A stretch of DNA of 64,000 bases. Origin: a phage. The notes beneath the pieces were generated by a model that saw nothing but the letters and a program-made list of their open reading frames with translations, did no database searches and was not told the origin of the DNA. The position numbers were made by a program, and so were the translations under genes. The stretch is taken from sequence record PZ445437.1. The stretch is one strand, 5' to 3'. Shown piece by piece: positions 35,319 through 46,985 of this stretch; position 1 is the first letter of the stretch, and every line of letters begins with the position of its first letter.

Positions 35319-35851
35319 TTACTATTACAGCAGTAGTGTACAGTGTCAATATGGACACTATAAATCTTATCCATATCAGGAGATTTGACAGGCTCATCAA
35401 TTATATACAAAATTCGCGAAAGCGATAAACCTCTGAACTTGCTTCCTTTATTACCAATAAAACTGCGCACAGAATCAGTAAATAAACGAAAACGTATATC
35501 ATCATTAGAATAACGCGAAAATTCCTTTTTAATGTTATTTGCAGAAATTTTAGCGTAAGCTGAAGTATTAGAAAGAACAATAACTGTTCCGCCATCATAC
35601 AGCCAATTAGCAGCAAAGTTAGTCACAGCAATTGATTTACCAGATTGACGTCCACCGTCTAGTCGAAGTGTGCAGTACTGTTTAAGTAATTCTTCAAATG
35701 GCGGGATATATTCGTTTTTACAAATTTCTTCTACTCTAGCATCAGAATGGTGTGTAAAAGCATTCATCAGGGATAGATAAGGACCAGTTAAAAATGTTCT
35801 CATTTTCTTCTCTCTAAGTTTGGGCCATTCCATGGCGCATGAATTGTCCAT
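35264..35851 (-). CDS. Hypothetical P-loop protein (195 aa)
   Basis: GGRQSGKS Walker-A-like motif. Confidence 0.4.
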   Translation of the reverse strand: MDNSCAMEWPKLREKKMRTFLTGPYLSLMNAFTHHSDARVEEICKNEYIPPFEELLKQYCTLRLDGGRQSGKSIAVTNFAANWLYDGGTVIVLSNTSAYAKISANNIKKEFSRYSNDDIRFRLFTDSVRSFIGNKGSKFRGLSLSRILYIIDEPVKSPDMDKIYSVHIDTVHYCCNSKCCIGGITRPQFFVIGMQ

Positions 35852-35944
35852 TTCTGTATTTACCCATTACCGCACTTGGGCTCGACCTTATTACAGGTTG
35901 GCGGGAATCCCTCACAGAATCATGAGGTCCAGGTTGTTCCCATA

Positions 35945-36418
35945 TTATTTGAACGATTTAACGTACTGAATAGAACCTTTACTATTCACAAAGGCAATTT
36001 TACCATTTTTGTTATACATGGTAGCAGTACGTTGATAGCCATAAGTTTGTTTACCAGATTGATAACCAACTAATGCAAAATTATCTTCACCCATTTTATT
36101 CTGTTTAGCGCGAATGCGTTCATGGCCATGTGCCATAAGAACCTTAGCATCACCTGTTGCAATGGATCGACGAGTTTTTTCATCTTCAACTGTATTAACA
36201 AAGTCGTCAAATGAATCAAATTTAGCATGAGATTTATTATACAGTTTTCCATCTACTGCATAATTATATCCTTGTACATCCATCTCAACTTCTGTACCAT
36301 CATCCAGTACAGCAGTGATTTTCTGTCCTTTTTTAAATTTCAAAAGATCAGTAAAAGATTCAGCAATAATTTGAGAATTAATAGTTGCTTCAGTAATAAA
36401 TTCTTGATATGTTTTCAT
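35945..36418 (-). CDS. Internal (capsid-injected) protein with capsid-targeting leader
   Basis: N-term MKTYQEFITEA matches the T4 IP capsid-targeting sequence (cleavage after L/I-x-E); ipII/ipIII locus position upstream of e. Confidence 0.65.
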   Translation of the reverse strand: MKTYQEFITEATINSQIIAESFTDLLKFKKGQKITAVLDDGTEVEMDVQGYNYAVDGKLYNKSHAKFDSFDDFVNTVEDEKTRRSIATGDAKVLMAHGHERIRAKQNKMGEDNFALVGYQSGKQTYGYQRTATMYNKNGKIAFVNSKGSIQYVKSFK

Positions 36419-36512
36419 GTGTATCCTTTAAATGTAAATATTTTAATTAATAATTTGGCTCTTCAAGTAACTGTGAATATACTATCACAATTCTAGGAGA
36501 AAGTAAACAACT

Positions 36513-37481
<969 letters not shown>

Positions 37482-37500
<19 letters not shown>

Positions 37501-37970
37501 TCAGTGATAAAGTTATTTAAATTTTGAGTGTATTTCTTTTCATCAAAAATCTTTTGCTGTCTGCGTAGCCGCCATGGCATTTCAATGAACACGCACCATA
37601 TCCCAGATAATATTGCTGCTGTAAAAATATTAACAAGTATGGTTAAAAGAATCCAATCTCCTATTCTGTCCATTGGATTTTTTATAAAAAAGTAAAATAC
37701 GAATGATGTCACAGGAAGACTAATAATATACCACAGAATCATAATTTTATCTGTGAACCAATCAGCGTTCGTTAACTTAGCACGACCATTATGAATACAC
37801 ACGAATTTATCATCTGTTATAATAGATGGCTTAGCTGCTTGATATCCCATTCTAAACTCCCTAATCAACAAATTTTTCATATCTTCGGAACAACCATTCC
37901 AGTCAACTCTATCAACTGAAATGCCATCATCCCCATCATCTAAATCATACCAGCGAGTTTTTAAAATCAT
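37482..37970 (-). CDS. Membrane protein (162 aa)
   Basis: Three TM segments. Confidence 0.45.
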
Positions 37971-38329
37971 TTAATTTTCCTACAATCACTCACAAACTCT
38001 TCCATTGATTCTTTTTCAATATAAGACATATAGCTATTATATTCCTTTAATTGTATTTTGTAATCCTTTTTTCTTTGCCAATTTATTTTAAAATTATCAT
38101 AATGAAAATATAACATTGTACCAAAGAATGAAAATAATGAAATAATTTTAGTATAGCGAAGTTCACTCCAAACTTCTATTATATTTACTGTGCCGTCGAT
38201 GTTTAAAATAAGACAGTCAATTAACAATCCAAAAAGACTACCCGCAAGAGCTGCAGCCAACGCCACAGCAAAAATTAAAAATGACTCAGGAAGCGAATAT
38301 TTGACTTTATTTAGTTTTGGCTTTTGCAT
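37967..38329 (-). CDS. Membrane protein (120 aa)
   Basis: Two to three TM segments. Confidence 0.45.
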   Translation of the reverse strand: MQKPKLNKVKYSLPESFLIFAVALAAALAGSLFGLLIDCLILNIDGTVNIIEVWSELRYTKIISLFSFFGTMLYFHYDNFKINWQRKKDYKIQLKEYNSYMSYIEKESMEEFVSDCRKIK

Positions 38330-38724
38330 CGTGATTCCTTAACAAATTTCATAATTTCATCAAATTCATACGCAGCAAGTTTAAGCTGGTGTTCCTTTTT
38401 AATCTTTTTACACTGTGCTTTCCATTCGCGTACGCGTTTACGATAATGTCTTCCTTGATACCAGTATCCTACCCAATTTACAGGTACTAATAAAAATGGA
38501 ACTACTAATGGAAGAATTAATACTAACAGAAATATTACGCCAGATTCAATATCAGTCATAACGTCTATAATCATTCCAACAATCAATAGAATTACAAATG
38601 ATATAGCTGTCACAGGACCTATTAATACATCAGTAGAAATTAGCTGGCGCTTTAATTCATACTTTAAGGGTTTACTTGGAAGATACATTGATGGCTTTGA
38701 CATATTCTCTACATTCCTTAACAA
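38311..38724 (-). CDS. Membrane protein (137 aa)
   Basis: Two TM segments. Confidence 0.45.
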   Translation of the reverse strand: MLRNVENMSKPSMYLPSKPLKYELKRQLISTDVLIGPVTAISFVILLIVGMIIDVMTDIESGVIFLLVLILPLVVPFLLVPVNWVGYWYQGRHYRKRVREWKAQCKKIKKEHQLKLAAYEFDEIMKFVKESRCKSQN

Positions 38725-39277
38725 ATTTTTCTAGTAATAAATCGCTTTCAAAACTAGGATTTTCCACGAATTTATCAAAAAGATCATCAACAATAGTTAA
38801 GATATTCTTTTTACTAAGAATACGCTTATTTTCATGCTTCGTTTCAGAATCAACTATAAGAGTAAAGAAATATTTCTTGCCCTGAAATTTTACAGTAGTA
38901 TCAATATAGAATAAATTTGACTTTTGTAAATTACGTTTAAACCATGCATCACTTAAACTATAAACGCCAAGATAATCATAATCGTCGTTTAAATAACAGA
39001 CCGTCCATTCAGGAGAAACAAAATCAGTAAATTCAACGTCAAAATCGCATGTTAATAAATGAATTGATTCAATACTGTTAATAAGTATTCCAGGACGTAT
39101 TAAAGACTTTTTACCTTTATAAAATCCAGAAAGACTTTCATCAGTTTCATATGAAGAACCCCAATAATAATTACGTCCTTCTGCCATACGTTTAAGAGCA
39201 TTTAATAATTGGTCTGGAACATCAACCTGTCTTTGGAACTCTTCAAACATTGAATTGAAATCACTTTGCATTTTCAT
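38672..39277 (-). CDS. Hypothetical protein (201 aa)
   Basis: ORF. Confidence 0.45.
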   Translation of the reverse strand: MKMQSDFNSMFEEFQRQVDVPDQLLNALKRMAEGRNYYWGSSYETDESLSGFYKGKKSLIRPGILINSIESIHLLTCDFDVEFTDFVSPEWTVCYLNDDYDYLGVYSLSDAWFKRNLQKSNLFYIDTTVKFQGKKYFFTLIVDSETKHENKRILSKKNILTIVDDLFDKFVENPSFESDLLLEKFVKECREYVKAINVSSK

Positions 39278-39297
39278 TCCTACTTACTCCAAGTAAT

Positions 39298-39313
39298 AGG
39301 GGCCGAAGCCCCT
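39298..39313 (-). terminator. Intrinsic terminator-like hairpin (AGGGGC-UUCG-GCCCCU)
   Basis: Hairpin 5 nt after the stop of 39319..39912. Confidence 0.45.
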
Positions 39314-39318
39314 TATCA

Positions 39319-39912
39319 TTATTTCAGAGAATTAATGTATTCCTGAACATCGGCAGAGGTAGTTTCAACCCCAGAAATATTGCCATTAAAGGTTTCAACT
39401 CGAGCAAGAGTATCTTCAATATCAACCTTAGTCAGTGCTGCAATTTCAACTACATCATCAGCAGTACTAATTCCGAGGGCATTCGCGGCGCGAGTTTCAC
39501 GGATATATTCCAATTTAACTGCAAGTTCTTGGCGAGCATCATCTAACTCAACTACTTTCTTGGCAATTTCAATTCGCATTTCAGCATAACCATCAGCTTT
39601 AGTAGTCAACTGCTCAGCTGTTCGACGATATAGTAAACCGAGTTTAGCATGCATTGTTACATCTTGACCTTCAGAAAGAAGCTTGCGAATTTCACGCTCT
39701 TTTGATTCGGCCTGCTTATTCTTTTCGACAATAAGTTCACGAATACGCTTTTCTTCATTAATAGATTTAACAGAAGCAGTTTTTAGATCTTTAATCTTAT
39801 CAAGTAGTTTTGCTGCCGCAGCAGTATACTGTTCTTCAACAGATAGATTTTTAGCCATAGCAGAACCAAGTTTAGTGCGAATAAACTCAACAATTTTCTT
39901 CAGCATGTTCAT
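39319..39912 (-). CDS. Coiled-coil protein, PspA/IM30-like (197 aa)
   Basis: Long amphipathic helices; composition and heptad pattern reminiscent of phage-shock protein A; weak assignment. Confidence 0.4.
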
Positions 39913-39986
39913 AGCATTTCCTTTAGTTAATTAAGGGTTTTATAATCCGTGGGAGTATTATACTCTACTCCCAAGAGTTTGTAAAC

Positions 39987-40319
39987 TTATTCTTCGTCCA
40001 ATTCATCAATAAATTTATCGATACTACTATTAATAGACTCATCGATGATTAACAAAGCATCATCATCTATAATATTAATATTTTCTAAAGCATCAATATA
40101 AGCTTGATTGACTATAGACCATGCCCTTTGAAAATATGGGGCTTCATCATCAGGACTGAACCAACGTACACCTTCAAAGATACGTTTAGCATAATCCAAC
40201 ACCCATTGTACAGGCATGTTTTGAGAGCGTTCATTAAACTCTTCAAAGTCCTTAGATTCAAAAAGCTCTTCAGGATAATAATTTCTATTACAAAAAGCTT
40301 TACTAAAGTTACGTTTCAT
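39987..40319 (-). CDS. Hypothetical acidic protein (110 aa)
   Basis: ORF. Confidence 0.4.
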   Translation of the reverse strand: MKRNFSKAFCNRNYYPEELFESKDFEEFNERSQNMPVQWVLDYAKRIFEGVRWFSPDDEAPYFQRAWSIVNQAYIDALENINIIDDDALLIIDESINSSIDKFIDELDEE

Positions 40320-40375
40320 AATGTTCTCCTCAAAGTTATAGGCTCATAATATCTCAATCATGAGCCTGTGTAAAC

Positions 40376-40639
40376 TTATTTCATATTATTGAAATATTCT
40401 TCTGCGATTTCGTCGTTATCATGGTAAACTTTAGAAGACAGTTTAACATAACTTTCAGCAGTGAACATGTTAATCACAACCTTTACAGTATACCACTGAC
40501 CATCTTCATTACCCATTACTGCGTAAGTTTCAAACATCGGATGATCAGGACCGATAACTTTAATATCATTCACTGTACGACCAAAATCTTCTGAAACACA
40601 TTTCATAAAGAAGTTGAACAGTTCGCCGTAATTATCCAT
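40376..40639 (-). CDS. Hypothetical protein (87 aa)
   Basis: ATG at 40639 with GGAG RBS; track start 40702 (TTG) lies inside the promoter. Confidence 0.4.
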   Translation of the reverse strand: MDNYGELFNFFMKCVSEDFGRTVNDIKVIGPDHPMFETYAVMGNEDGQWYTVKVVINMFTAESYVKLSSKVYHDNDEIAEEYFNNMK

Positions 40640-40682
40640 TTCATTCTCCAAGTTGTTTTCTGTATCAGTAGTTGATAGTTGT

Positions 40683-40711
40683 ATAGTACCATGGAAGGAC
40701 AAGGATGTAAA
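40683..40711 (-). promoter_or_regulatory. T4 early-class promoter
   Basis: Minus strand TTTACA..17 nt..TACTAT. Confidence 0.45.
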
Positions 40712-40849
40712 CCGTTTTGTGAAAAAATTTTTAAAAAGTTTTGGGGAATTCTAGGGCAGGGAGGGGAAATCAAAGGATAGGATAATATATTATAAAGGGT
40801 AGAAACTAAATGATGTCTAGAGAGGCCTGGAAAGGCCTAGATACCAAAA

Positions 40850-40873
40850 AGCCCCAACCTTTCGGCTAGGGCT
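40850..40873 (-). terminator. Intrinsic terminator (GNRA tetraloop), copy B
   Basis: Minus strand AGCCCUAGCC-GAAA-GGUUGGGGCU + U4, 7 nt after the IP-like gene stop; preceded by a second hairpin GGCCU..AGGCC at 40824-40837. Confidence 0.6.
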
Positions 40874-40880
40874 AAGAATG

Positions 40881-41354
40881 TTATTTGATTTGTTTAGCAG
40901 ACCAAATGCGGTCTTTAATAATTTTTTGGATGTCTTCAACATACTCAAGAGAGTGAGCATGTGGGTTATCTTTGAAACTATAAGCACGAGCTAGCTTTTG
41001 GCCTTCAGTTTTGATTACTAAAAGCTCTTTAAGGATAGCTTCATATTTGGAGATAATTCCTTTAACGATATTTTTCTCTTGCGTGACTTTAGGATCTGCT
41101 TTAGGAGCAGGTTTACCTGAAGCCTTTGCAAAAGCAGCTCCAGTAGCAACTAAACTTTTCCAAGCCATACTAACTGCATTCCCTGTAAATCCTTCGGCTT
41201 TCATATCACGAGCAAATTGGAATCGTGATTCATCGGAAGCATCTTTATAGGAATATTTACCCGCGGCAATGGCTGCTTTTGCGACAGCTTGAATTTCGGT
41301 GCTAGATGCTTCATTTAACACCGCTTCATTTAAAAATTGAGCATATGATTTCAT
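40881..41354 (-). CDS. Internal-protein-like protein with capsid-targeting leader (157 aa)
   Basis: N-term MKSYAQFLNEA follows the IP leader pattern M-K-[ST]-Y-x-[EQ]-F-[IL]-x-E-A; Ala/Lys-rich; own late promoter and flanking terminators. Confidence 0.55.
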   Translation of the reverse strand: MKSYAQFLNEAVLNEASSTEIQAVAKAAIAAGKYSYKDASDESRFQFARDMKAEGFTGNAVSMAWKSLVATGAAFAKASGKPAPKADPKVTQEKNIVKGIISKYEAILKELLVIKTEGQKLARAYSFKDNPHAHSLEYVEDIQKIIKDRIWSAKQIK

Positions 41355-41390
41355 CTTATTTCCTGTTTTAATTTGTGGTTTTAATATACT

Positions 41391-41398
41391 TATTTATA
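41391..41398 (-). promoter_or_regulatory. Late promoter (TATAAATA)
   Basis: Minus strand TATAAATA about 35 nt upstream of AGGAAA RBS and ATG at 41354. Confidence 0.55.
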
Positions 41399-41404
41399 CT
41401 AAAA

Positions 41405-41428
41405 AGCCCCAACCTTTCGGCTGGGGCT
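41405..41428 (-). terminator. Intrinsic terminator (GNRA tetraloop), copy A
   Basis: Minus strand AGCCCCAGCC-GAAA-GGUUGGGGCU + U5; near-identical to copy B. Confidence 0.6.
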
Positions 41429-41430
41429 AA

Positions 41431-41739
41431 GCCTTGCGGCAACCTTGTCGGGGTTCCACCTGCTAAGGCAAGTGTTTGTACGAAACGCCGGGATTCGAAC
41501 CCGGTTATCAAGCAGTTGACGCTACTCAATATTTTTAAAAGGCCATATCTCGACCATATCCGAACGTTCCGTCAAAAACGCTACTCGGCTTACGGCAAAG
41601 ATATTTCCTCGAATCGATAATTCGGTGCGCCGTTTCTGCTGTGATATAAGGGGACATTAACAAAACATAAAGATTTATTAATGCCAGTCCTTAAACAGGG
41701 AACATCAGTCCGACGACTTACCGGTAGCGACCCGGTTTC
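41431..41739 (-). ncRNA. Candidate stable small-RNA region (boundaries unknown)
   Basis: ~310 nt without convincing ORF between the ORF downstream of tRNA-Arg and a strong terminator; contains tRNA-like T-arm CCGGG-TTCGAAT-CCCGG (41488-41504); T4 has RNA C/D near tRNA-Arg. Confidence 0.3.
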
Positions 41740-42090
41740 TTAATATTCTTTTAAAGCATCAATCTGTTCACGGCGTTTACGCCATAAATCAATTGCTTCA
41801 TACACAGATTCAGCATTTCGAATTAGCCGGCATTTATGTAAAGACTTATGATTTTGATATTGTGTAGATAATGGAATTGTATCTAAAAGGTCTTTACGAT
41901 CAAAGTATTCGTAACCATCTAAACCAAATGAACGATTTTTGAGAAATTGCCAATGGCCAAATTCATTTTCAACATAAACATAATCTGCATGCTGATAAAG
42001 TAAATTAATTACACGTTCAGAAATAGCAGTATCATTATGATTAAAATAGAATGTTAAATCATGAACTACTAAATAAACATTACCTTTCAT
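41740..42090 (-). CDS. Hypothetical protein (116 aa)
   Basis: ORF starting 19 nt after tRNA-Arg 3' end. Confidence 0.5.
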   Translation of the reverse strand: MKGNVYLVVHDLTFYFNHNDTAISERVINLLYQHADYVYVENEFGHWQFLKNRSFGLDGYEYFDRKDLLDTIPLSTQYQNHKSLHKCRLIRNAESVYEAIDLWRKRREQIDALKEY

Positions 42091-42108
42091 ATTTTCCTCA
42101 CTTATAAT

Positions 42109-42184
42109 TGGTCGAGGCAGTAGGGATCGAACCTACGACCTAGGACTTAGAAGGTCCTTGCTCTTCCTTCTGAGCTATGCCCCG
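42109..42184 (-). tRNA. tRNA-Arg (anticodon UCU)
   Basis: Hand-folded cloverleaf, 76 nt, CCA encoded, anticodon loop CUUCUAA. Confidence 0.85.
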
Positions 42185-42188
42185 TAAT

Positions 42189-42264
42189 TGGGGTGACCGA
42201 TGGGAGTCGAACCCATGACTACGAGAATCACAATCTCGAGTTCTACCAACTGAACTACGGCCAC
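42189..42264 (-). tRNA. tRNA-His (anticodon GUG)
   Basis: Hand-folded cloverleaf, 76 nt, CCA encoded, anticodon loop UUGUGAU. Confidence 0.8.
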
Positions 42265-42378
42265 ATTAATACCTACTCCAACAATCAAGATGTCTTCACA
42301 CGAAATTAAGAGAAGAGTGATCAGTTCAACCCCTATAATCGCGTCAAGTAGATATTAATGTGACAGTTGTCACAAATT

Positions 42379-42453
42379 TGGCGGACGTGATAGGATTCGA
42401 ACCTATAACCAATCGCTTAACAGGCGATCGCTCTGCCATTGAGCTACACATCC
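42379..42453 (-). tRNA. tRNA-Asn (anticodon GUU)
   Basis: Hand-folded cloverleaf, 75 nt, CCA encoded, anticodon loop CUGUUAA. Confidence 0.8.
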
Positions 42454-42457
42454 AAAT

Positions 42458-42544
42458 TGGTGGGGAGTGATGGAGTCGAACCACCCGAGTCGCAATGACA
42501 ATGGATTTACAGTCCACACCGCTACCTCTACGGGATAACTCCCC
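42458..42544 (-). tRNA. tRNA-Tyr (anticodon GUA), class II
   Basis: 87 nt with long variable arm, anticodon loop CUGUAAA, CCA encoded. Confidence 0.8.
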
Positions 42545-42553
42545 AAATTAATT

Positions 42554-42628
42554 TGGTGGCCCTGGGTGGAATTGAACCACCATCTGGCGATTATGAGTCG
42601 CTTGCTTGAACCTTCCAGCTACAGGGCC
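42554..42628 (-). tRNA. tRNA with CAU anticodon (Ile2/lysidine type or Met)
   Basis: 75 nt cloverleaf, anticodon loop CUCAUAA; T4 tRNA-Ile occupies this position after Thr. Confidence 0.8.
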
Positions 42629-42629
42629 T

Positions 42630-42705
42630 TGGTGCTGATTGACGGAATCGAACCGCCGACCTTCTCATTACAAGTGAGTTGCTCTACCTACTGAGCTAAA
42701 TCAGC
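42630..42705 (-). tRNA. tRNA-Thr (anticodon UGU)
   Basis: 76 nt cloverleaf, anticodon loop CUUGUAA. Confidence 0.85.
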
Positions 42706-42710
42706 AAAAC

Positions 42711-42800
42711 TGGCGGAGGCGATAGGATTTGAACCTATGAGTCGCCGGAGCGACTGCCGGTTTTCAAGACCGGTGCATTAAACCACTCTGCCACGCCTCC
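42711..42800 (-). tRNA. tRNA-Ser (anticodon UGA), class II
   Basis: 90 nt with long variable arm, anticodon loop CUUGAAA. Confidence 0.85.
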
Positions 42801-42806
42801 AAATAT

Positions 42807-43457
42807 TTATATATTGTTAATTTGATTTAGAATTCTTTTTGCTTGAGTATGACTTACGCCAATATGCTTAGCATATTTAGATAATTCACCACGCTTAGAA
42901 AAATCATATAATTTAGAAATTTCTATTCTTCTTTTTCTTTCATCCACAGAAACTTTTGCTTCGTTTGCTTTTGCTATTTTACGTTTAGCTTCTTGAGAAT
43001 GAGTTTTACCAGCAAAGCCATTCTTCATTAATCCATTTGAAGACCATCCTTTTAATTTTCCGTTAGAATGTGCCTTTTTAACACCCAATGAAATTAATTC
43101 GCGTTGCTGGTCTGTCATAGGATAATTATTTATATGATCCCATCCACCTTCACCGCCAAGTTTTAAATTATACACATCTGGTCTATTTAAAAACTCTTCT
43201 GTAACAATATTTTTCTCGGCTTCAAGCATAGATTCTTTATCATCAAAATACTCTAATATTTCTTTAGAAAAATTTTCTATACCATACTTATCTTGGGCTC
43301 TTTTTAATAATTTACCAGAACCCATATATCCATCATCTAAATTTTCGGTAGAATGCACACCAATATAAATTTTATTATTAATTTTATTTGTTATTTTATA
43401 AAGATAAAAATGCATATCAGTCCCTAATAAAGAACTGAGCGTCTCACGACGAGTCAT
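42807..43457 (-). mobile_element. segB: GIY-YIG homing endonuclease SegB-like, inside tRNA cluster
   Basis: FYLYKITNKINNKIYIGVH...DDGYMGSG GIY-YIG motif; located between tRNA-Gly and tRNA-Ser as segB is in T4; probable true start at internal Met (43415). Confidence 0.8.
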
Positions 43458-43461
43458 AAAT

Positions 43462-43535
<74 letters not shown>

Positions 43536-43540
43536 AAATT

Positions 43541-43627
43541 TGGTGCGAGAAGTGGGACTCGAACCCACAAGGAAATCATTCCGCAGCATTTTAAGTGCTG
43601 TGCCTTTACCAATTTGACCATTCTCGC
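43541..43627 (-). tRNA. tRNA-Leu (anticodon UAA), class II
   Basis: 87 nt, anticodon loop CUUAAAA, long variable arm. Confidence 0.85.
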
Positions 43628-43628
43628 G

Positions 43629-43701
43629 CTGGGAATAAAGGACTCGAACCTTTGCATCCTGGAATCAAAATCCAGTGCCTTACCAACTTGGCTAATTCCC
43701 A
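43629..43701 (-). tRNA. tRNA-Gln (anticodon UUG)
   Basis: 73 nt, U1-A72 pair, anticodon loop UUUUGAU, CCA not encoded; 1 nt from tRNA-Leu. Confidence 0.85.
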
Positions 43702-43787
43702 ATTATTAACAAAGGCTCTCAAGCAAGAACCCTTGATGATAGAGGGTATTAATCAGTGCGGTATGAGTTAATAATAACAAATAATTC

Positions 43788-44303
43788 TTAAAGCAAATTA
43801 AACATTTTAACAGTCGGCAAAACAATTTCTTTTTCTATATAAGAGTATTTAACACTCTCAACTACGCGCAGAAAATCATAATCATAATATTCAGAAGCAC
43901 TGCCTAAAATATTAATAAGTCCTTCAAGCACTTTATTACCATTCACAAAGAATAAGTCAAATACACGTTCTTCATCTTCTTCAGATTTATTACCAAGGTC
44001 AACTTCTATATCAAAGACCTTTTTAATGAATTCTGGATAAAGCTGGTCTGAGAACAGTCCTTCAACCAAGTATTCATAGATAAAAAGCGATTGCTCGCTG
44101 AACAAGCCATTACCACAATAACGTTCAGCTTTAGTACTAGAATGTCTACTTTTAAACTTCTTTAAAAGATATTGAAATTGTAAGATTTCATGCTCTTCTA
44201 CGCCAAACAGTGTTTTAGTTTTATAGTTGTCACCATCATTTTCCCAGGTAGTGACATCAATTACGTAACCCTGTGGAATTGTAGTACCTAAACAAATATT
44301 CAT
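43788..44303 (-). CDS. Hypothetical protein (171 aa)
   Basis: ORF upstream of tRNA cluster. Confidence 0.45.
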   Translation of the reverse strand: MNICLGTTIPQGYVIDVTTWENDGDNYKTKTLFGVEEHEILQFQYLLKKFKSRHSSTKAERYCGNGLFSEQSLFIYEYLVEGLFSDQLYPEFIKKVFDIEVDLGNKSEEDEERVFDLFFVNGNKVLEGLINILGSASEYYDYDFLRVVESVKYSYIEKEIVLPTVKMFNLL

Positions 44304-44593
44304 TTGCTCACCATATTAATGTAAGTATATTCAATACATTCAAGACCCAAAGGATTCTTGAAAATATCATATTCAAGAGGACCTTTTTCCGTTTCAATAA
44401 AGAAATCAAAATTTACTGTATTAAATTTACGGTCTTCCTTCACTAATTTAACCTGAGAAGATGAACGGTCAATGTAAACCTTTTCAACTTCAAAACATGT
44501 TAAAATGCCATAATCATCAATCAAGGCTTTAGCTGCTTCTTGATCATATTTATATCCATTTTCAATGGATGATACTTTAGCATAAAGAATCAT
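44300..44593 (-). CDS. Hypothetical protein (97 aa)
   Basis: ORF, ATGA-coupled. Confidence 0.45.
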   Translation of the reverse strand: MILYAKVSSIENGYKYDQEAAKALIDDYGILTCFEVEKVYIDRSSSQVKLVKEDRKFNTVNFDFFIETEKGPLEYDIFKNPLGLECIEYTYINMVSK

Positions 44594-44595
44594 TA

Positions 44596-45006
44596 TCAGC
44601 CTCTATCAACGATAGCATGAGTATGGGCATTTACGATTTGCCACCAGTCGAAACGATTGGAACCATAATCTGGTTTATTTTCATTTTCTTTAATGATATC
44701 ACGCAACTTATCTTCTGTTTCAGCATACGCAATTAAATCATCATATCCACCGCAAGGATAATAATTATCACCTGCGAATAAAAGAAAATTTACCTTAGAT
44801 GGATTTACGTAATAATGGTCTTTAGGATATTTAGTTCCTCTCCAATCAGTTACTTCAACATAACGGTAAGAAAATCCATTTTTACTTTCAATCCAACTCC
44901 ACGCTTCAAAAGGAGTATTAAAAACTTTATCAGGTATTAAATTACCTTCAAAATGAGAAGGATTTGCATAATCCCCGGCATAAACATAATATTCGTTAAT
45001 ACTCAT
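44596..45006 (-). CDS. Hypothetical protein (136 aa)
   Basis: ORF. Confidence 0.45.
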   Translation of the reverse strand: MSINEYYVYAGDYANPSHFEGNLIPDKVFNTPFEAWSWIESKNGFSYRYVEVTDWRGTKYPKDHYYVNPSKVNFLLFAGDNYYPCGGYDDLIAYAETEDKLRDIIKENENKPDYGSNRFDWWQIVNAHTHAIVDRG

Positions 45007-45192
45007 TTATTCACCTTTAGAAATTTTATCCATAACGATAGCGATTAAACCAATTAAAAATGCTACTACAAGCGAAAACACATTTTCTGCTGTAGTTAAT
45101 AATCCGCATATAAATCCAACAAACATTGAAAAACTAAAAGCGGAAGCAGAAATTGCAATAGCAACATTTCGAATTAATTCACAACGTTTCAT
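45007..45192 (-). CDS. Small membrane protein (61 aa)
   Basis: Two hydrophobic helices. Confidence 0.45.
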   Translation of the reverse strand: MKRCELIRNVAIAISASAFSFSMFVGFICGLLTTAENVFSLVVAFLIGLIAIVMDKISKGE

Positions 45193-45220
45193 TTTATTCT
45201 CCTCAGTAGTAGATAGGGTA

Positions 45221-45249
45221 ATAGTATCACTACCCTATCTAAAAGTAAA
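45221..45249 (-). promoter_or_regulatory. T4 early-class promoter, -10 inside a 9-bp inverted repeat
   Basis: Minus strand GTTTAC..17 nt..TACTAT; GATAGGGTA..TACCCTATC palindrome spans the -10. Confidence 0.45.
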
Positions 45250-45250
45250 C

Positions 45251-45484
45251 TTATTTTTTACGAAAAATTGATTTATATTTATCAGCCCATTTCTCGATGA
45301 CTTTTGCCGGGCCATAGATAACAAAATAATCACCAAACTCTTCACCACCGAGTTGACCGAAATTATCTAATGCATCACGAAGAACTCCATGAGGCATTTC
45401 GCCCATTTTATCTTTCTTACCAATGTAAATAAACTCAACTTTTACATCAGCAGCTTCAGCAATAAATTCTTGATACGTTTTCAT
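45251..45484 (-). CDS. Internal protein IPI-like (77 aa) with capsid-targeting leader
   Basis: ATG at 45484 with GGAG RBS gives MKTYQEFIAEA... leader identical to the T4 IP leader; ipI position upstream of 57B. Confidence 0.6.
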   Translation of the reverse strand: MKTYQEFIAEAADVKVEFIYIGKKDKMGEMPHGVLRDALDNFGQLGGEEFGDYFVIYGPAKVIEKWADKYKSIFRKK

Positions 45485-45520
45485 TTTATTCTCCAATTTC
45501 ACATTTGTTTTGATAGGGTA

Positions 45521-45549
45521 ATAGTATCACAACTAAAACCCTATGTAAA
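45521..45549 (-). promoter_or_regulatory. T4 early-class promoter (duplicate module of 45221-45249)
   Basis: Minus strand GTTTACA..17 nt..TACTAT; shares GATAGGGTAATAGTATCAC and the RBS block with the module 300 bp away. Confidence 0.45.
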
Positions 45550-45562
45550 CAACTTTGTGAAA

Positions 45563-46259
<697 letters not shown>

Positions 46260-46260
<1 letters not shown>

Positions 46261-46985
46261 TATAGTACCTTTAGTGTATTTTTAATTTTAGAAAAAAGTT
46301 CTTCAAGAGAACCATCGTTTGTAATTACTAAATCGCCATCACGAATTGGCAATCCAGCTTCTGTAATATGTGTATCATTGGATTTTTGACCAGGACGAAC
46401 TACATGAATTACTGTAGCACCCATCGCCCTAGCCGCATCCATTTCATGATCTTGACGGGTATCAGGAACGATATAATAATCATAACCTGAGTTAAATTTA
46501 TCAAGATAATCTAAAGCAAATAATTTTACCCAGTACATGCGGTCGAAGTTATTAACAATCAAATCCGTACCTAGGGCTTGCATCAGACGACGGACTGACC
46601 ATTGATCTTCAATATTATTTATAACGTCAATAATCTTGTTAAATGCTACGGAATTAACTGATTCTTGTCCTTCGTCATCAAAAACAAACACACCTTTAAT
46701 CGGGCTTTTACCATTAAGATAGCAAAATGCTTGTTCCATAATCGTGATTACTTCTAATTTAGTCAGATTTAAATTAGTCTCACGATCATAGTCAATTCCT
46801 TCAAACTCTTTACGAGTTAAGCAAGGATAGTCAGTGTTTGCTGCAAATACTCCCCATGCATAAGCCAATGCATCCTTAATAGGACCAGCAAGTTGGTATT
46901 TAACTGCAGAATAATTGCTCATGATAAAATCAGCAGTAGTATCTTTTCCACTGCGCTTTACACCGCTTAAAAAGATTAGTTTCAT
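46260..46985 (-). CDS. 1: Deoxynucleoside monophosphate kinase
   Basis: ATG at 46985 gives 241 aa (T4 gp1); P-loop GVKRSGKDT. Confidence 0.92.

Follow-up and report, generated by a model that had tools for sequence, protein, structure and literature searches.

The window analysed in this study (64,000 nucleotides of sequence record PZ445437.1, positions being counted from its first letter) is a segment of a Tequatrovirus (T4-like) phage; it shows 95–98% identity over 1.9 kb with many such phages and carries the T4 lysozyme gene e, e.1–e.8, a ten-gene tRNA cluster, and the rnaD/rnaC region. An open reading frame (ORF) of 157 amino acids, here designated gene A (40881–41354, located on the minus strand, as are all genes discussed below), is situated between rnaC and e.8. 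Gene A probably encodes a T4-type internal head protein (IP) that would be made late, packaged, cleaved by gp21, and injected, and the rnaC-to-e.8 interval is probably, in effect, a third polymorphic IP locus. This assignment was reached from the anatomy of the locus, from a leader that is conserved throughout the protein family, and from the behaviour of the site, which is occupied in some T4-like phages, empty in others, and mosaic in sequence.

Leader, predicted cleavage sites, and transcription signals of gene A

Translation confirmed the originally predicted ORF with its start MKSYAQFLNEA, the first ten codons of which (MKSYAQFLNE, 41325–41354, minus strand) end in the gp21 motif L-N-E and are followed by Ala. 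The original prediction had likened this leader to the capsid-targeting sequence (CTS) of the T4 internal proteins, and the likeness held both at the experimentally critical residues and throughout the family. Relative to the T4 CTS MKTYQEFIAE, the leader is identical at M1, K2, Y4, F7, and E10 and conservatively exchanged at S3 and L8. According to a review of Black's work (PMC9026906), the ten N-terminal residues of IPIII are enough for foreign proteins to be packaged by T4; mutations in this CTS show that residues 4 and 7 matter mainly for targeting and that 8 and 10 matter for processing, and cutting by gp21 occurs after L/I-X-E. Both targeting residues, Y4 and F7, are present in the gene A leader, as are two consecutive gp21-type sites (L8-N9-E10 followed by A11, and L13-N14-E15 followed by A16), and cleavage by gp21 is predicted. 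These sites form a duplication (LNEA-V-LNEA, 41307–41333, minus strand) of two near-perfect 12-nt copies with a period of 15 nt, TTAAATGAAGCg-GTG-TTAAATGAAGCa (TTAAATGAAGCG GTG TTAAATGAAGCA); the extra five residues are missing from Mosigvirus, Klebsiella, and other family members.

The motif MK[ST]Y.[EQ]F[IL].E was searched in the six-frame translation of the 64 kb. It occurs three times, in each case at the first codon of a minus-strand ORF (40881–41354, 35945–36418, and 45251–45484), and these are exactly the three ORFs for which such a leader had been claimed. The motif was composed after sight of the three sequences, so the count is descriptive and carries no formal test.

Homologues of gene A include three divergent alleles, A (that of the window), B, and C, all bearing a leader of the form x-x-[Y/F]-x-x-F-L-x-E. 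Ten sequences were aligned, comprising alleles A, B, and C together with Klebsiella, Yersinia, and Cronobacter-type members (23–51% identity to A, with one Mosigvirus-type A allele at 80%). Only seven columns are invariant, four of them within the leader (M1, F7, L8, and E10), and position 4 is always occupied by Y or F. Judged from this alignment, constraint in this fast-evolving protein is strongest in the leader, where it falls on the experimentally defined positions. The retention of positions 4, 7, 8, and 10 in a family of approximately 25% identity requires purifying selection on the leader itself, and this conservation is the strongest argument for the proposed packaging and processing.

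An exact late-promoter core, TATAAATA, had been predicted at 41398→41391 (minus strand; 41391–41398); it is present there, 2 nt past the T-run of a terminator and 36 nt 5' of the ATG, and is conserved in relatives. A Shine–Dalgarno sequence, AGGA (41361–41364, minus strand), lies 6 nt 5' of the start codon. The octamer was found without a mismatch at the same relative place in RB27, RB68, SP21535, fPS-65, Klebsiella phage phiKp_22, the Mosigviruses G53 and PNJ-6, and Cronobacter phage VP8, and the annotation of fPS-65 independently marks the site as a "predicted late promoter". The position of a late-promoter octamer directly 3' of a terminator is thus shared by four genera (Tequatrovirus, Mosigvirus, Jiaodavirus, and Muldoonvirus).

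The ORF is flanked on either side by a hairpin (upstream, 41405–41428, with the T-run 41404–41401; downstream, 40850–40873, with the T-run 40849–40846; both minus strand), each composed of a 10-bp stem, a GAAA loop, and a subsequent TTTT(T). One stem base differs between them (C versus T), pairing being kept as U-G. Folding energies of −20.6 kcal/mol (z −3.8) and −18.3 kcal/mol (z −4.0) were predicted for the upstream and the downstream hairpin, respectively, and in an 11-kb scan (35500–46500) they ranked as the best two terminator-like sites; the downstream hairpin is also an ARNold-predicted terminator in R5505. Each hairpin is held within one copy of a direct repeat (copy 1, 41430–41401; copy 2, 40875–40846). 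Allowing one mismatch, the window contains exactly two occurrences of the corresponding 30-mer, TTAGCCCNAGCCGAAAGGTTGGGGCTTTTT (0 expected), and the repeat reaches approximately 35 nt in RB27, RB68, and fPS-65 (…GGGGCTTTTTGGTAT). The 5' arm of the hairpin varies (AG, GA, TAG) yet still pairs with the constant GGTTGGGGC 3' arm by A-U/G-U alternation, and because pairing is kept among the variants, the variation is consistent with selection on structure.

The two hairpins with their U-runs and the single stem difference were as originally predicted, but they do not form a private bracket of the cassette. Since T4, which is devoid of the ORF, has the same hairpin 3' of rnaC, the upstream copy is, on this comparison, the resident terminator of the tRNA/rnaD/rnaC unit, which is duplicated at the 3' end of gene A. 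Taken together, the sequence data support a conserved late-promoter motif for gene A that would be insulated by terminators.

We propose late transcription, packaging, cleavage, and injection of the product and, by analogy with Ip1–Ip3, an anti-defence role, in the following course. Early and middle transcription from the tRNA/rnaD/rnaC unit would halt at the first hairpin. Late in infection, gp55-directed RNA polymerase would initiate at TATAAATA and produce a monocistronic mRNA as far as the second hairpin; e.8, the early gene further downstream, retains its own promoter. The decapeptide MKSYAQFLNE would act as a CTS and bring the protein into the scaffolding core of the prohead, where gp21 would trim the leader after L-N-E (two consecutive sites being present), and the basic, Lys-rich protein of approximately 16 kDa would stay in the DNA-filled head. 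Upon ejection with the DNA it could be active before phage gene expression; to our knowledge, no phage proteins other than the internal proteins are present in the cell when the DNA enters. Its function would most plausibly be the neutralisation of a nuclease-type host defence, in the manner of Ip1–Ip3 against GmrSD. Recombination could remove, add, or swap alleles by means of the homology that the duplicated terminator and the conserved flanks (rnaC and e.8) would supply.

Occupancy and mosaicism of the rnaC–e.8 site

The original prediction regarded the locus as an exchangeable module, and a comparison across T4-like genomes bore this out: the site is empty or holds A, B, A and B together, or C, and it is mosaic, not invariant. 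In T4 there is no gene between e.8 and rnaC, and a single copy of the hairpin is present there. Gene A is likewise absent from T2, RB10, and RB59, the site in T2 having one hairpin. Global alignment with T4 gave collinear flanks of 95% and 94% identity around a segment of approximately 555 bp (41422–40866, minus strand) missing from T4, which comprises the late promoter, the ORF, and one hairpin copy. This segment is bounded by the 30–35-nt direct repeat; the breakpoint falls inside the hairpin repeat, where its exact position is ambiguous.

A 971-nt query (cassette plus flanks) matched 732 phage records, 447 of which cover at least 80% of the query, and on this count gene A is present in 447 of the 732. 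The state of the site was classified in an evenly spaced sample of 60 rows from the 732 records. Gene A alone was found in about half of the sample (for example, in this window), gene A and a second gene in tandem in about 12% (fPS-65, DalCa, ZN18), the second gene alone in about 3% (RB14, G4498), and an empty site in about 12% (T4, T2, RB10, RB59); in a further 22% or so, the sequence diverges right after the late promoter (G53, PNJ-6, HX01). Allele B (187 aa, starting MKTYAEFLTEA) is 95–99% identical across 164 records, Mosigviruses included. Allele C (208 aa, starting MYTFNEFLAETEVITEA; Mosigvirus G53, JS09-type) is preceded by a terminator and TATAAATA.

When the Mosigvirus PhAPEC2 was compared with the Tequatrovirus fPS-65 at the nucleotide level, identity was 66–83% in gene A and 92–100% in gene B and the flanks, and the divergence shifted at the hairpins. 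So sharp a mosaic indicates recombinational exchange. Frameshifted or truncated copies of family members are common (fPS-65 g136c, RB69 ORF148c/149c, PNJ-6, G28), which suggests either that a dispensable gene is often inactivated or that homopolymers were misread in sequencing. In g136c of fPS-65 (569–907 of the extracted stretch), a run of nine A replaces GAGAAAAA, and the damaged copy in PNJ-6 is located at 2066–2452. These comparisons indicate that the gene is non-essential and its locus variable among T-even phages, and they support the view that the locus behaves as an exchangeable module.

Mosigvirus, Jiaodavirus (Klebsiella phages), and, from Muldoonvirus, Cronobacter phage VP8 likewise carry a homologue of gene A on the downstream side of the tRNA/small-RNA cluster; each time a terminator is followed by TATAAATA (one Mosigvirus has a near-match), the ORF, a second terminator, and an early promoter. 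The terminator pair is unlike in sequence in Jiaodavirus and Muldoonvirus, so the identity of the twin hairpins appears to be a feature of the Tequatrovirus/Mosigvirus lineage. With the arrangement spread so widely across genera, loss between the direct repeats would account for the vacant T4 site more simply than an ancestral absence would. In VP8 (vB_Cdu_VP8, OQ361773.1), a 72-aa ORF with the leader MKSFTEFLTES (2286–2504 of the extracted stretch) precedes the gene A homologue, overlaps its start through ATGA, and has a late promoter in common with it; this ORF may encode a further small internal protein.

Outside the cassette, the early promoter of e.8 (TTTACA-17-TACTAT with TG) was located at 40683–40711 (minus strand), and the homologue of rnaC (species 1 RNA) at approximately 41483–41621 (minus strand), the latter coordinates having been transferred from the annotations of RB68 and T4. 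The region of rnaC and rnaD, which correspond to the stable RNAs species 1 and 2 of T4 (window approximately 41431–41746, minus strand), is well conserved, and over 100 nt of the rnaC region a Mosigvirus matches a Tequatrovirus with 100% identity. A search of Rfam gave no family for rnaC, rnaD, or the hairpin, tRNAs alone being reported. Between tRNA-Arg and rnaD lies an ORF of 116 aa (MKGNVYLVVHDLTFYF..., 41740–42090, minus strand), which is labelled "hypothetical" in RB68, R5505, and Mosigviruses; in T4, rnaD directly follows tRNA-Arg, and this interval is thus another insertion/deletion polymorphism of the tRNA region. The ten tRNA genes of the window (42109–43701, minus strand: Arg, His, Asn, Tyr, Met, Thr, Ser, Gly, Leu, Gln) form a set unlike that of T4, which has eight (Arg, Ile, Thr, Ser, Pro, Gly, Leu, Gln). 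The cluster is interrupted by a SegB-like ORF of 216 aa (42807–43457), the counterpart of which in RB68 is labelled "truncated SegB-like protein".

Protein family, predicted structure, and alternative explanations

The gene A protein matched phrog_2280 (PHROGs v4, "unknown function") with an E value of 3.9e-60, residues 1–157 being aligned with positions 1–172 of the 178 in the profile. Full-length matches to the same profile were obtained for alleles A, B, and C and for the Klebsiella homologue (E 1e-53 to 1e-60). The notion that A, B, and C are unrelated occupants of the site was rejected on these grounds; by profile, they are diverged members of one family. A BLASTP comparison of A with B aligned the 11-aa leader only, and hhalign on a shallow alignment gave no clear result. 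The homology search proposed together with the original prediction thus placed the protein in a family over its full length and returned no homologue of known function.

The mature product is predicted to be a protein of approximately 16 kDa with an isoelectric point (pI) of 9.5 and 13.6% Lys. An AlphaFold model of moderate confidence (mean predicted local distance difference test score, pLDDT, 72.6) is all-helical and consists of a four-helix N-terminal domain (residues 18–71, pLDDT 85–92), a Pro/Lys-rich linker (72–88), and a C-terminal helical hairpin (88–154). The Pro/Lys/Ala-rich linker reads KASGKPAPKADPK in gene A; its far longer counterpart in allele C, KVKPAPTTPKPATPKAVAKPEPKPEVKATPKAP, yields weak TonB/PspC-like low-complexity matches. 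Searches of Pfam and NCBIfam returned noise only for the gene A family. A PDB sequence match to a designer pentatricopeptide repeat protein was discarded as spurious, being located on an Ala-rich helix. No sequence match to IPI*, Ip2, or Ip3 was found in Pfam, PHROG, or PDB searches, and, apart from noise of the ferritin-like four-helix type (E>1), Foldseek searches of PDB and BFVD returned only the protein's own family. When 1.84 billion representatives were searched exhaustively with a profile, 12 matches were obtained, all but one of which are seemingly T4-type phage proteins or fragments thereof; the remaining one, a repeat protein of 2146 aa, was judged to be a low-complexity match. On these searches the phrog_2280 family is narrow, and it offers no bacterial homologue as a clue to function. 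Among named members from five clusters, one UniProt entry (Klebsiella phage KPKp) bears the name "Internal head protein".

Several findings weigh against an internal head protein with an anti-defence role. The octamer TATAAATA is not enriched in the window (13 observed versus 11.1 expected); significance by count alone was rejected (13 against approximately 11 in an AT-rich window), and since a single match proves little by itself, the weight of the motif derives from its position and its conservation among relatives. Regulation also differs from that of recognised IP genes, as ipI, ipIII, Ip4, and the ipI-locus gene of the window have an early promoter directly upstream and gene A has the late motif only. 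A further L-K-E at residues 108–110 of the gene A protein is a possible additional gp21 site within the mature chain. Foldseek against PDB gave no match at E≤0.001, IPI* included, so the anti-defence role is argued by analogy only. More than 500 records label gene A simply as "hypothetical protein", and the literature search found neither a paper describing the protein nor a virion proteome naming it. For phage HY01, a carrier of gene A, one of five major virion bands separated by sodium dodecyl sulfate polyacrylamide gel electrophoresis was assigned to a "hypothetical protein" by matrix-assisted laser desorption/ionisation time-of-flight mass spectrometry; the text reporting this band does not state the gene (PMC5201272).

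The main rival explanation, which is considered rather unlikely, also assumes a packaged internal protein and assigns to it a mainly structural or physical function, namely that of a Lys-rich, DNA-binding counter-ion for condensation, organisation, or ejection of the genome. The pI of 9.5 and the Lys content of 13.6% would suit such a function, as would the linker KASGKPAPKADPK with its much longer version in allele C, the contacts of IP lysines with DNA phosphates (PMC3012670), and the lack of a specific fold match in the searches above. A generic counter-ion is, however, difficult to reconcile with the fact that T4 and T2 manage without the gene and with alleles that diverge fast, are swapped, and are often frameshifted, as is typical of genes in an arms race; nor would it account for a structured N-terminal domain that is conserved and confidently modelled (pLDDT 85–92).

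The other two rivals concern the leader itself. It appears improbable that the protein is made late and stays unpackaged in the cytoplasm, its likeness to a CTS having arisen by chance or through the shuffling of 5' gene ends among T-even accessory genes. Mobile leaders would produce a BLASTP alignment of A with B that is confined to the 11-aa leader, and the promoter arrangement unlike that of classical ip genes and the negative literature search for a virion proteome naming the protein point the same way; yet in a family of approximately 25% identity the leader is the most conserved part, at the mapped positions 4, 7, 8, and 10, and the first 10 residues alone package foreign proteins in T4 (PMC9026906). 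Very improbable, finally, is an accessory protein of the prohead core or scaffold similar to gp67/gp68, which would enter the core, undergo cutting by gp21, and leave the head ahead of DNA packaging, so that injection would never occur. Leaders and L-x-E sites are common to core proteins, and the L-K-E at 108–110 would be an additional site of this kind, but it is the one internal candidate and is situated inside a predicted long helix. Moreover, core scaffold proteins are conserved and essential whereas gene A is dispensable and polymorphic, and according to established knowledge its leader fits the CTS of the IP type and not the termini of gp67/gp68. An injected internal head protein is retained as the probable reading, and within it an anti-defence role is plausible by analogy.

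Relation to known internal proteins and loci

Repoila, Tetart, Bouet, and Krisch reportedly described two polymorphic IP loci, ipI and ipII/ipIII, in 1994 (EMBO J 13:4181, cited through PMC12373910), at which unrelated small proteins with leaders are encoded and each ORF is said to be flanked by repeats that contain inverted repeats and could mediate recombinational shuffling. The principle of polymorphic IP loci with flanking repeats has thus been known since that work and is not new; the gene A locus extends a known theme. As in that description, a repeat bearing an inverted repeat was found both 5' and 3' of the gene A ORF. No match to an early promoter was found in 41430–41354, the repeat that flanks gene A being a terminator followed by the late promoter.

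Two recognised IP genes are present elsewhere in the window. The ORF at 35945–36418 (minus strand) is Ip4, being 99% identical to "Ip4" of RB68 and matching Pfam DUF7412 and phrog_3155; it lies directly downstream of e, the position of ipIII in T4, the order in RB68 being e, denV, Ip4. The ipI-locus gene (45251–45484, minus strand) encodes 77 aa starting MKTYQEFIAEA, matches phrog_8111 ("internal virion protein"), and is flanked on both sides (45180–45600) by the classical repeat GTTTAC...TGATACTATTACCCTATC (GTTTAC...GATACTAT), in which an early promoter overlaps an inverted repeat. Ip5 of RB68 is a different gene, matching it in the leader only. The annotators of RB68 named Ip4 and Ip5 and left gene A unlabelled, which is indirect evidence, based on labels, against phrog_2280 being among ip4–10.

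Each of Ip1, Ip2, and Ip3 has its own target among the GmrSD type IV restriction enzymes, which it inhibits; when Ip4–10 were assayed on further clusters of this kind, none was active, and for several GmrSD clusters that act against T-even phages no inhibitor is known (PMC12373910). IPIII is required on ECOR17 and is active without its CTS when expressed by the host (PMC9391042), and work from 2022–2025 has found all three T4 internal proteins to be needed on particular wild hosts (PMC9391042, PMC12373910). In T4 heads, lysines of the internal proteins contact DNA phosphates, and IPI* has a compact fold of two beta-sheets (PMC3012670). By analogy, it may tentatively be proposed that phrog_2280 is a new family of injected anti-defence proteins at a third IP locus, alleles A, B, and C each disarming a different host system. 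As part of the same tentative proposal, the targets could be those GmrSD clusters for which no Ip inhibitor is known (PMC12373910), or a class of defence new to internal proteins.

A leader-bearing family with three divergent alleles is thus carried, under the annotation "hypothetical", by roughly 500 sequenced T4-like phages, many of them candidates for therapy of E. coli O157, Shigella, Yersinia, and Klebsiella infections. The phrog_2280 alleles provide a short and concrete list of candidates for studies of host-range determination and anti-restriction. A scan for the CTS pattern at ORF starts can reveal IP genes beyond the two classical loci, and the duplicated terminator offers a simple picture of how a late, insulated gene may be gained or lost inside an early region.

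With IPI–IPIII of T4 and their CTS (Mullaney & Black 1996; reviewed in PMC9026906 and PMC3012670), gene A shares an approximately ten-residue leader (aromatic position 4, F7, L/I8, and E10, then Ala), a mature product predicted to be small, basic, and Lys-rich, and the dispensability of the gene. It differs in that no sequence or fold similarity extends beyond the leader, in having a late-promoter motif only where the classical ip genes have an early promoter directly upstream, in its location at the rnaC–e.8 locus, and in details of the leader (L8 instead of I; S3, A5, Q6, and N9) together with the duplicated putative cleavage site. With the loci attributed to Repoila and co-workers (Ip4–Ip10 and beyond) it has in common the variable number and identity of leader-bearing ORFs and the repeats with inverted repeats around the ORF; the repeat is, however, a terminator hairpin of 30–35 nt and not an early-promoter element of approximately 70 bp, the occupants A, B, and C are homologous and not unrelated, and the locus would be the third. 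The likeness to the GmrSD inhibitors IPI*, Ip2, and Ip3 (Bair & Black 2007; Rifat 2008; Silas et al. 2025, PMC12373910) lies in the logic of delivery preloaded in the head, as proposed for gene A, and in a fast-evolving gene content that varies among strains, whereas the predicted fold is all-helical as opposed to the two beta-sheets of IPI*, and the sequences do not match. To phrog_2280, of which the products of genes A, B, and C and the Klebsiella homologue are full members, the present analysis adds a putative CTS and the behaviour of the locus for a family whose PHROG had so far carried no functional label.

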